DNA of 64,000 nt from a phage. Where the stretch lies: the sequence record PZ445437.1. One strand, written 5' to 3'. Made by a program: the position numbers and the translations under genes. The notes under the pieces were generated by a model. The model saw only the letters and a program-made list of their open reading frames with translations. It did not search any database and was not told where the DNA came from. This document shows, one piece after another, positions 42,109 through 43,701 of the stretch (the first letter of the stretch is position 1; each line of letters opens with the position of its first letter).

Positions 42109-42184
42109 TGGTCGAGGCAGTAGGGATCGAACCTACGACCTAGGACTTAGAAGGTCCTTGCTCTTCCTTCTGAGCTATGCCCCG
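42109..42184 (-). tRNA. tRNA-Arg (anticodon UCU)
   Basis: Hand-folded cloverleaf, 76 nt, CCA encoded, anticodon loop CUUCUAA. Confidence 0.85.
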
Positions 42185-42188
42185 TAAT

Positions 42189-42264
42189 TGGGGTGACCGA
42201 TGGGAGTCGAACCCATGACTACGAGAATCACAATCTCGAGTTCTACCAACTGAACTACGGCCAC
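42189..42264 (-). tRNA. tRNA-His (anticodon GUG)
   Basis: Hand-folded cloverleaf, 76 nt, CCA encoded, anticodon loop UUGUGAU. Confidence 0.8.
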
Positions 42265-42378
42265 ATTAATACCTACTCCAACAATCAAGATGTCTTCACA
42301 CGAAATTAAGAGAAGAGTGATCAGTTCAACCCCTATAATCGCGTCAAGTAGATATTAATGTGACAGTTGTCACAAATT

Positions 42379-42453
42379 TGGCGGACGTGATAGGATTCGA
42401 ACCTATAACCAATCGCTTAACAGGCGATCGCTCTGCCATTGAGCTACACATCC
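42379..42453 (-). tRNA. tRNA-Asn (anticodon GUU)
   Basis: Hand-folded cloverleaf, 75 nt, CCA encoded, anticodon loop CUGUUAA. Confidence 0.8.
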
Positions 42454-42457
42454 AAAT

Positions 42458-42544
42458 TGGTGGGGAGTGATGGAGTCGAACCACCCGAGTCGCAATGACA
42501 ATGGATTTACAGTCCACACCGCTACCTCTACGGGATAACTCCCC
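42458..42544 (-). tRNA. tRNA-Tyr (anticodon GUA), class II
   Basis: 87 nt with long variable arm, anticodon loop CUGUAAA, CCA encoded. Confidence 0.8.
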
Positions 42545-42553
42545 AAATTAATT

Positions 42554-42628
42554 TGGTGGCCCTGGGTGGAATTGAACCACCATCTGGCGATTATGAGTCG
42601 CTTGCTTGAACCTTCCAGCTACAGGGCC
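42554..42628 (-). tRNA. tRNA with CAU anticodon (Ile2/lysidine type or Met)
   Basis: 75 nt cloverleaf, anticodon loop CUCAUAA; T4 tRNA-Ile occupies this position after Thr. Confidence 0.8.
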
Positions 42629-42629
42629 T

Positions 42630-42705
42630 TGGTGCTGATTGACGGAATCGAACCGCCGACCTTCTCATTACAAGTGAGTTGCTCTACCTACTGAGCTAAA
42701 TCAGC
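42630..42705 (-). tRNA. tRNA-Thr (anticodon UGU)
   Basis: 76 nt cloverleaf, anticodon loop CUUGUAA. Confidence 0.85.
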
Positions 42706-42710
42706 AAAAC

Positions 42711-42800
42711 TGGCGGAGGCGATAGGATTTGAACCTATGAGTCGCCGGAGCGACTGCCGGTTTTCAAGACCGGTGCATTAAACCACTCTGCCACGCCTCC
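42711..42800 (-). tRNA. tRNA-Ser (anticodon UGA), class II
   Basis: 90 nt with long variable arm, anticodon loop CUUGAAA. Confidence 0.85.
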
Positions 42801-42806
42801 AAATAT

Positions 42807-43457
42807 TTATATATTGTTAATTTGATTTAGAATTCTTTTTGCTTGAGTATGACTTACGCCAATATGCTTAGCATATTTAGATAATTCACCACGCTTAGAA
42901 AAATCATATAATTTAGAAATTTCTATTCTTCTTTTTCTTTCATCCACAGAAACTTTTGCTTCGTTTGCTTTTGCTATTTTACGTTTAGCTTCTTGAGAAT
43001 GAGTTTTACCAGCAAAGCCATTCTTCATTAATCCATTTGAAGACCATCCTTTTAATTTTCCGTTAGAATGTGCCTTTTTAACACCCAATGAAATTAATTC
43101 GCGTTGCTGGTCTGTCATAGGATAATTATTTATATGATCCCATCCACCTTCACCGCCAAGTTTTAAATTATACACATCTGGTCTATTTAAAAACTCTTCT
43201 GTAACAATATTTTTCTCGGCTTCAAGCATAGATTCTTTATCATCAAAATACTCTAATATTTCTTTAGAAAAATTTTCTATACCATACTTATCTTGGGCTC
43301 TTTTTAATAATTTACCAGAACCCATATATCCATCATCTAAATTTTCGGTAGAATGCACACCAATATAAATTTTATTATTAATTTTATTTGTTATTTTATA
43401 AAGATAAAAATGCATATCAGTCCCTAATAAAGAACTGAGCGTCTCACGACGAGTCAT
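42807..43457 (-). mobile_element. segB: GIY-YIG homing endonuclease SegB-like, inside tRNA cluster
   Basis: FYLYKITNKINNKIYIGVH...DDGYMGSG GIY-YIG motif; located between tRNA-Gly and tRNA-Ser as segB is in T4; probable true start at internal Met (43415). Confidence 0.8.
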
Positions 43458-43461
43458 AAAT

Positions 43462-43535
43462 TGGAGCGGATAATGAGAATCGAACTCACATCATCAGATT
43501 GGAAGTCTGAGGTAATACCATTATACGATATCCGC
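43462..43535 (-). tRNA. tRNA-Gly (anticodon UCC)
   Basis: 74 nt; sequence GCGGATATCGTATAATGGTATTACCTCAGACTTCCAATCTGATGATGTGAGTTCGATTCTCATTATCCGCTCCA matches T4 tRNA-Gly as recalled. Confidence 0.9.
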
Positions 43536-43540
43536 AAATT

Positions 43541-43627
43541 TGGTGCGAGAAGTGGGACTCGAACCCACAAGGAAATCATTCCGCAGCATTTTAAGTGCTG
43601 TGCCTTTACCAATTTGACCATTCTCGC
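43541..43627 (-). tRNA. tRNA-Leu (anticodon UAA), class II
   Basis: 87 nt, anticodon loop CUUAAAA, long variable arm. Confidence 0.85.
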
Positions 43628-43628
43628 G

Positions 43629-43701
43629 CTGGGAATAAAGGACTCGAACCTTTGCATCCTGGAATCAAAATCCAGTGCCTTACCAACTTGGCTAATTCCC
43701 A
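43629..43701 (-). tRNA. tRNA-Gln (anticodon UUG)
   Basis: 73 nt, U1-A72 pair, anticodon loop UUUUGAU, CCA not encoded; 1 nt from tRNA-Leu. Confidence 0.85.

Follow-up and report, generated by a model that had tools for sequence, protein, structure and literature searches.

Homing endonucleases as the probable shapers of a ten-gene tRNA operon in a T2/RB-type Tequatrovirus

In phage T4, a middle promoter directly upstream drives transcription of the transfer RNA (tRNA) cluster, and the homing endonuclease SegB cuts tRNA genes at the T-arm/CCA end, with a preferred 27-bp site in tRNA-Asn (Brok-Volchanskaya et al., 2008, PMC2330249). The same study reported that T2L, RB1 and RB3 have no segB and carry extra tRNA genes, and that in co-infections of T4 with T2L segB is inherited at nearly 100% while T2L markers are lost. 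In T6, SegB drives amplification of a segment containing tRNA-Tyr and segB (Chihara et al., 2026, PMC13096335). Here we analyzed a tRNA cluster at positions 42109-43701 of a 64-kb stretch of phage DNA (record PZ445437.1; the whole stretch is called the window, and all cluster coordinates are on its minus strand). The cluster belongs to a T2/RB-type Tequatrovirus closely related to RB18, RB51 and AR1 and constitutes its tRNA operon. The differences between its repertoire and that of T4 are best explained by the traffic of homing endonucleases and not by tuning of the tRNA set, and we consider this reading, taken as a whole, to be very likely.

ARAGORN identified ten tRNA genes in the window, all on the minus strand, and their transcription order is tRNA-Gln (UUG, 43628..43701), tRNA-Leu (UAA, 43541..43627), tRNA-Gly (UCC, 43462..43535), an open reading frame (ORF), tRNA-Ser (UGA, 42711..42800), tRNA-Thr (UGU, 42630..42705), a tRNA with the anticodon CAU (42554..42628), tRNA-Tyr (GUA, 42458..42544), tRNA-Asn (GUU, 42379..42453), tRNA-His (GUG, 42189..42264) and tRNA-Arg (UCU, 42109..42184). 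The Rfam family RF00005 independently called the same ten genes, all over its gathering score of 29 bits; nine of them scored 59-74 bits (E about 1e-10 to 1e-14), and the weakest was tRNA-Tyr (30.2 bits), which has a long variable arm and a weak D-stem. No tRNA-Pro was detected in the 64-kb window by ARAGORN or RF00005. An earlier note on this DNA, based on folding by hand, had given the same genes, order and anticodons, with Pro absent and Tyr, Asn and His present, and the T4 set that it gave (Gln, Leu, Gly, Pro, Ser, Thr, Ile and Arg) is that of the T4 reference record. The genes are separated by 0-9 nucleotides (nt), except at the ORF and at a 114-nt gap between Asn and His, and tRNA-Gln directly abuts tRNA-Leu. 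The CCA end is encoded in nine of the ten genes, tRNA-Gln being the sole exception, and the motif GGTTCRANTCC is found in eight of the ten.

The 3.1 kb around the cluster are 97.4% identical to Enterobacteria phage RB18 over the full length, and 95-97% identical to KAW1E185, AR1, AndreasVesalius and KIT03, while for the endonuclease region by itself the identity is 99.5% to ECML-134 and 99.2% to RB51. The ten-tRNA layout is thus not new: public records of dozens of T4-like phages already contain it with annotation. When GenBank and RefSeq copies are counted separately, the full allele of the window type occurs in about 56 records and the DNA-binding half of its endonuclease in 55 phage records (at least 95% identity), whereas an intact Gly-Pro-Ser arrangement occurs in 447 records and the DNA-binding half of the T4/T6-type SegB in about 116 (at least 80% identity). 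The stretch from Asn through the gap to His is found in about 190 Tequatrovirus records (at least 95% identity).

The Shigella phage ESh33 has a near-identical cluster that contains no ORF and has tRNA-Pro instead. Its eleven tRNAs (Gln, Leu, Gly, Pro, Ser, Thr, CAU, Tyr, Asn, His and Arg) are the fullest known set, with the CAU gene counted as Ile2. When ESh33, T4, T6, T2, teqskov and the window are compared, an endonuclease gene, the relic of one or the scar of a recombination lies at each place where a cluster departs from these eleven genes. We propose that GIY-YIG genes of the SegB family would each have overwritten a different part of this set. In T4, segB with flanking variant Ile and Arg genes would have replaced Tyr, Asn, a structured element described below, and His; in T6, segB comes after Tyr; in T2, the place of the missing Thr is taken by a truncated relic; and in the window, a chimeric endonuclease gene would have replaced tRNA-Pro. 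The relic in T2 (AP018813) is trna.1, an ORF encoding 133 amino acids (aa) at 1916-2317 of the extracted locus, whose product shows 33% identity to residues 84-198 of the window protein, belongs to the same PHROG as the C-terminal half of that protein and has no GIY-YIG motifs, and it is an N-terminally truncated endonuclease relic. In teqskov (MN895437), which has six tRNAs, a hybrid gene with the 5' half of Thr and an Asn-like 3' half (about 1600-1698 of the extracted locus) is the scar of a deletion by recombination between tRNA genes.

The earlier note had described Tyr, Asn and His as added to the T4 set. However, the existence of an endonuclease-free relative with all eleven tRNAs, together with the published homing of SegB, indicates that their absence from T4 is the derived state, T4 segB filling the slot of Tyr, Asn and His. 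The two genes flanking T4 segB, Ile and Arg, are only 61% identical to the T2-type genes found in the window, a pattern similar to that of the window's own junction. Furthermore, the preferred 27-bp site of T4 SegB is intact in the window (42377..42403, minus strand, GGTTCGAATCCTATCACGTCCGCCAAA) at the 3' end of tRNA-Asn, and it carries all five diagnostic bases (G6, A16, G18, A26 and A27) listed in PMC2330249, so that the window phage would be a recipient for the segB of T4 or T6. The intact site predicts that Tyr, Asn and His would be lost to T4 or T6 in a mixed infection.

The ORF between tRNA-Gly and tRNA-Ser is 651 nt long (42807-43457, 216 aa) and ends 6 nt before tRNA-Ser. Its first ATG lies 4 nt from tRNA-Gly and not 5 nt as had been noted earlier, and the real start is most likely the second ATG at 43415, which gives a protein of 202 aa. 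Because the homologues in T4, T6 and KP13MC5-5, a Klebsiella phage of the genus Jiaodavirus, all start at this second methionine, the 14 additional N-terminal residues are probably untranslated, and we did not retain them as protein. Counted from 43415, the first 289 nt (43127..43415) encode a GIY-YIG catalytic domain that is essentially identical to that of T6 and T4 segB, with four mismatches to T6 segB (98.6% DNA identity); beyond nt 289, the identity to T6 segB falls to about 50%. At the protein level, identity to T4 SegB is 83% over residues 15-131 of the long ORF (117 aa), with no alignment beyond, whereas the SegB proteins of T4 and T6 are 95% identical throughout. The Pfam domain GIY-YIG (PF01541) was detected above its cut-off, and the catalytic part belongs to phrog_314 (homing endonuclease). 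A search against solved structures gave no match for the endonuclease.

The 3' part of the gene (42807..43126) encodes a DNA-binding half with a NUMOD3-like motif, which falls just below the Pfam cut-off for NUMOD3, and a helix-turn-helix-like C-terminal end. This part is 86.5% identical in DNA to a gene located between tRNA-Gly and tRNA-Pro in KP13MC5-5, and the 46-nt leader of the endonuclease (43416..43461) is also conserved with KP13MC5-5, while the catalytic half of the Klebsiella-phage gene shows only about 73% DNA identity. A sharp recombination breakpoint is seen at 43127, with segB-like sequence upstream and Jiaodavirus-like sequence downstream. The endonuclease gene is thus a chimera of a T4/T6-type catalytic module with the leader and DNA-binding module of a lineage residing at the Gly-Pro junction, that is, the product of a DNA-binding-domain swap that took place in nature between two homing-endonuclease paralogues. 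The earlier identification of the ORF as segB therefore holds for the catalytic half only: the GIY-YIG domain is shared with T4 SegB, the C-terminal DNA-binding region is unrelated to that of SegB, and the insertion site is the Pro slot and not the one between Ile and Arg. This domain-swapped enzyme illustrates how recombination between paralogues gives rise to new homing specificities, and it may be counted among the modest new leads from this locus.

Public annotations of these genes conflict with each other. The homologue in RB18 (MH553563) is labelled segB with the remark that its location is conserved in T4, which is wrong; that in AR1 (AP011113) is labelled segD and that in RB68 (KM607004) truncated SegB-like. 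T6 segB is labelled as a serine recombinase in AP018814, and T2 trna.1 as a tail sheath monomer in AP018813. In KP13MC5-5 (OP617748), the gene between tRNA-Gly and tRNA-Pro is an unannotated GIY-YIG gene of 202 aa (2503-3148 of the extracted locus).

The insertion of the endonuclease is the proximate reason why tRNA-Pro is missing from the window. Where the Gly-Pro junction is empty, as in Tequatrovirus, a Jiaodavirus and two Karamvirus-like contigs, it is conserved across the three genera, with GCTCCA followed by a short spacer and by ACTCCGTGTAGCTCAGTTTGG, the 5' end of tRNA-Pro. In both occupied alleles, those of the window and KP13MC5-5, ACTC...GCTCAGTT is found at the same position with a scrambled center (43454-43433 in the window), which looks like a disrupted target site. 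In KP13MC5-5, a divergent but intact tRNA-Pro follows the endonuclease gene, whose stop codon lies within the 5' end of this tRNA gene; in the window this tRNA-Pro is gone. The leader thus holds a remnant of the 5' end of Pro and, in addition, a hairpin (43438-43417) that sequesters the Shine-Dalgarno sequence AGGGA one nt before the ATG at 43415. The pairing of this hairpin is kept in KP13MC5-5 despite base changes, and an analogous occluding hairpin has been described for T4 segB (PMC2330249). We also considered whether the leader could be a recent leftover of a resident Tequatrovirus tRNA-Pro, and this was ruled out, since the leader is shared with the Klebsiella-phage cassette and therefore travelled with the gene; it looks like an older disrupted 5' end of Pro. 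By its junction anatomy, the endonuclease would cut endonuclease-free phages near the 3' end of Gly or the 5' end of Pro, and the loss of tRNA-Pro would be collateral to its homing.

To compare codon usage, 80 mechanically called ORFs of the window (17,598 codons) were set against 39 annotated genes of E. coli K-12 (14,574 codons). Enrichment in the phage is strongest for the codons AGA, AAT, ATA, ACA, TCA, ACT, TAT and GGA, and eight of the ten phage tRNAs read a codon among the top 12 of 61 for phage/host enrichment, which was matched by 1 in 100,000 random sets of ten codons. Genes on the plus strand (baseplate, late) use GGA, TCA, ACA, ATA, AGA and CCA about 1.5-2 times more than genes on the minus strand. 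TAT reaches about 2.9 times and AAT about 3.7 times the host frequency, and the use of tyrosine and asparagine is 2.0 and 1.7 times that of the host. The tRNAs would therefore be kept mainly for codons whose frequency in this AT-rich phage, above all in its late genes, far exceeds that in E. coli. Codon supply explains the retention of most of the tRNAs, Tyr and Asn included; it explains neither tRNA-His nor the differences between phages, for which we hold to the traffic of endonucleases.

Several points weigh against this account. The host codon table comes from one 50-kb segment of K-12 and the phage table from one 64-kb window. The eleven-tRNA set is taken as ancestral by parsimony and by the known direction of homing, not by a dated phylogeny, and the historical order of events is one that we infer. 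The remnant of the 5' end of Pro comprises a mere 12 matching bases, divided over two blocks, and part of the match could be coincidence, although it is collinear and both occupied alleles have it. The activity and the target of the endonuclease are deduced from homology and junction anatomy only, just as the transcription and processing of the operon in the window phage are deduced from its sequence. Finally, tRNA-His fits neither the codon-supply explanation nor any documented role in defence.

Of the alternatives, the one that survives best is that Tyr, Asn and His, all with GUN anticodons, are kept mainly as supplements or decoys against host immunity that cleaves tRNAs, and not for codon supply. 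The tRNA-Tyr of the window is 98% identical to that of T6 (two substitutions), which has been detected and assayed experimentally; Septu cleaves tRNA-Tyr, overexpression of the T6 tRNA-Tyr restores infection, and T4, which lacks tRNA-Tyr, cannot escape Septu (PMC13096335). Similarly, the tRNA-Tyr of T5 neutralises retron-Eco7 (Azam et al., PMC11555353). The low codon demand for tRNA-His and its lack of G-1 also sit poorly with a purely translational role. However, the literature searched describes no defence system that targets tRNA-Asn or tRNA-His and yielded no comparable defence role for either; a phage tRNA-Asn gave no rescue from PrrC170 (PMC11555353); the T6 tRNA-Tyr is itself cleaved by Septu and acts by dosage (PMC13096335); and codon demand already explains Tyr and Asn well. 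The idea that the three are targets of a colicin E5-like nuclease, given their GUN anticodons, was dropped, as the literature gave no support for Asn or His. For the three genes together, counter-defence as the main reason of retention is thus possible, though we lean against it. For tRNA-Tyr alone, a defence-related benefit is plausible by analogy with T6 and T5: it could additionally replenish tRNA destroyed by host defences, and tRNA-Tyr, kept here and lost in T4, would then determine sensitivity to tRNA-cleaving defences such as Septu.

It is unlikely that the repertoire as such, without Pro and with Tyr, Asn and His, was selected for codon usage or for a different host range. The phage tRNAs do map onto phage-enriched codons, and the suggestion in the earlier note that the additional tRNAs track codon usage stands for Tyr and Asn, given the figures for TAT, AAT and their amino acids. 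It fails for His, since the use of histidine is 0.72 times that of the host and still lower in late genes. Lysine is used 1.9 times as much as in the host, yet the phage has no tRNA-Lys. CCA and CCT are both enriched, above all in late genes, yet tRNA-Pro is the gene that is missing, which argues that its loss is a cost and not adaptive. Besides, T4, T2, T6 and RB18 all grow on E. coli according to their record annotations, and the departures from the eleven-tRNA set coincide exactly with an endonuclease gene or relic. Least probable of all is that Tyr, His and Arg are non-functional relics drifting in a dispensable region: tRNA-Tyr barely passes the Rfam threshold and has mismatches in its D-stem, the T6 tRNA-Tyr has been described as relatively unstable (PMC13096335), tRNA-His lacks G-1 and the region is non-essential in T4 (PMC2330249), but the three genes are 99-100% identical across RB18, ESh33 and T2 and occur in hundreds of records, they have encoded CCA ends and intact anticodon loops, tRNA-His with U-1 and C73 is conserved across four genera, and the T6 tRNA-Tyr is expressed and biologically active (PMC13096335).

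The traffic of homing endonucleases thus remains the favoured reading, and under it the locus would be a clean illustration of how the tRNA repertoires of T-even phages are set largely by selfish homing endonucleases and not by gene-by-gene tuning, with four endonuclease insertions or relics accounting for four different tRNA losses. It also warns against inferring host or codon adaptation from tRNA content.

The 114-nt gap between Asn and His had been regarded as a spacer; it contains instead a conserved structured element of about 97 nt (42265..42360, minus strand), in which a closing helix of 14 bp, an arm in two parts and a hairpin of 4 bp meet at a three-way junction. The element of the window has a folding energy of -32.7 kcal/mol (z = -4.4), which none of 200 shuffled sequences equalled. 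Phages of the genera Jiaodavirus, Karamvirus and Gelderlandvirus carry its conserved core of about 97 nt (78-92% identity), so that it is present in four genera of Tevenvirinae in all. It usually lies just 5' of tRNA-His, and it occurs without His in STP4-a (602-699 of the extracted locus) and in teqskov (1501-1599 of the extracted locus). The consensus fold of the element is likewise a three-way junction. Among nine distinct sequences, 96.6% of the cells pair, against 35-50% when the partners are slid, and compensatory changes are found in six pairs, against at most two in the slid controls; the covariation score was reached by none of 500 shuffles, a result to be read with the reservation that nine related sequences are a small sample and that they had been aligned to fit the model. 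The presence of four invariant G.U pairs speaks for an RNA encoded on the same strand as the tRNAs.

Other identities of the gap were considered. For an internal promoter, no sigma-70-like site was found on the transcribed strand and no late (TATAAATA) or MotA motif was seen. For a decayed tRNA or a known ribozyme or small RNA, ARAGORN found nothing and no Rfam family matched 42265-42378, even at E <= 1. For a repeated mobile element, the covariance model detected a single copy at each locus and no further one in the window. A looser DNA pattern, used to look for distant copies in viral contigs, gave 36 further loci, all of which were chance matches according to the covariance model.

The tRNA-His next to the element has T at position -1 (42265), with G1-C72, C73 and the anticodon GUG, whereas E. 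coli hisR encodes G-1; the encoded G-1 opposite C73 that marks an E. coli-type tRNA-His is thus absent, which is unusual for an enterobacterial system. G-1 and C73 are histidine identity determinants in E. coli (PMC9976931). U-1 is invariant in six distinct tRNA-His genes of T4-like phages from four genera (that of the window and five others), and it also takes part in the outermost pair of the closing helix of the element. We tentatively suggest, without giving it even odds, that the element is an undescribed conserved structured RNA within the tRNA operons of several Tevenvirinae genera, and it could form a functional unit with the G-1-less tRNA-His. [quoted passage not shown] Both may be new, and they are small leads that are directly testable.

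With regard to the other tRNAs, the best E. coli matches of the CAU tRNA among 5,424 E. coli genomes are genes annotated as tRNA-Ile (81.6% identity), and its acceptor stem GGCCC/GGGCC gives the pairs C4-G69 and C5-G68, which we take to be TilS determinants. It is most likely a lysidine-dependent tRNA-Ile2 that reads AUA, and the annotators of RB18 agree. The tRNA-Gln allele is common to the window, RB18 and ESh33 and is 89% identical to the one common to T4, T2 and T6; the differences cluster in the anticodon arm, the anticodon itself being the same. The acceptor stem of tRNA-Arg (UCU), with G3.U70, resembles that of tRNA-Ala. A selected alanine-identity feature was ruled out, since the pair varies among relatives (A3-U70 in T2 and STP4-a, G3-C70 in teqskov), and G3.U70 is probably a neutral variant. 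GUN anticodons are common to the three tRNAs missing from T4, namely Tyr (GUA), Asn (GUU) and His (GUG), and the Jiaodavirus cluster of KP13MC5-5 has all four GUN tRNAs, Asp (GUC) included; this might reflect a vulnerability or a modification (queuosine) that they have in common.

A T4-type middle promoter is predicted upstream of tRNA-Gln (43771..43797, minus strand), where a MotA box TTTGCTTTA (43797-43789), which overlaps the stop codon of the upstream ORF, is followed by a 12-nt spacer and the -10 sequence TATTAT (43776-43771); this arrangement we take to match the MotA middle-promoter consensus of T4. The 85 nt upstream of tRNA-Gln are almost invariant among T4, T6, T2, ESh33 and the window. 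Downstream of tRNA-Arg, an ORF of 116 aa (41740..42090, minus strand; phrog_3355, function unknown) has no Pfam match and lies before the rnaD homologue; T2 and RB18 also have it, and T4 does not. By alignment to the T4 annotation we located homologues of rnaD (the T4 stable 'species 2' RNA; 41623..41746, minus strand) and rnaC (the stable 'species 1' RNA; 41479..41616, minus strand), the latter with a tRNA-like T-arm. At its 3' end (about 41623) the rnaD homologue reads ...CACCG in the window against ...CACCA in T4, so a CCA-like end is not encoded. A strong intrinsic terminator (41405..41428, minus strand), with a 10-bp stem containing seven G-C pairs followed by a T-run, closes the unit. 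Most likely, a single transcript of about 2.3 kb would start from the MotA-dependent middle promoter about 60 nt upstream of tRNA-Gln, span the ten tRNAs, the endonuclease gene, the 116-aa ORF and the rnaD and rnaC homologues, and stop at the terminator; this precursor would be a substrate of host RNase P and 3'-processing enzymes. The tight packing had already been read as a sign of one processed polycistronic precursor, and the 0-9 nt spacing, the conserved promoter, the continuation through rnaD and rnaC to a terminator and the T4 precedent (PMC2330249) are all consistent with it.

The locus has the architecture of a T-even tRNA operon: it starts with Gln, Leu and Gly after the conserved promoter region, ends with rnaD, rnaC and the terminator, and is flanked by the e.x genes on one side and by trna.2-4/57B on the other. 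RB18 (MH553563), RB51, AR1, ECML-134 and about 50 further Tequatrovirus records have the same tRNAs, order, endonuclease, 116-aa ORF and flanks (97-99.5% identity), and they differ from the window by point differences only. T2 has identical CAU and Asn genes, Tyr and Arg genes of 97-99% identity and the 116-aa ORF, but it keeps Pro and lacks Thr as well as the element plus His. T6 shares tRNA-Tyr and the catalytic half of the endonuclease at the identities given above; its SegB, however, has the T4-type DNA-binding half and is located between Tyr and Arg, and ARAGORN found no Pro, Ser, Asn or His tRNA in T6. T4 has its cluster at the same genomic position with an identical upstream promoter region and the rnaD and rnaC genes, and its Gln, Leu, Gly, Ser and Thr genes are 89-100% identical to those of the window (Leu and Gly 100%). 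T4 differs in having Pro, in lacking Tyr, Asn, the element and His, with segB in that slot between Ile and Arg, in its divergent Ile and Arg genes, in the lack of an encoded CCA in Ser and Ile (it is encoded in the Ser gene of the window) and in the lack of the 116-aa ORF. Outside Tequatrovirus, KP13MC5-5 shares with the window the leader, the DNA-binding half (82% identity in aa, about 87% in DNA) and the position right after tRNA-Gly, and it differs in its divergent catalytic half and in the tRNA-Pro that it has kept behind the endonuclease gene.

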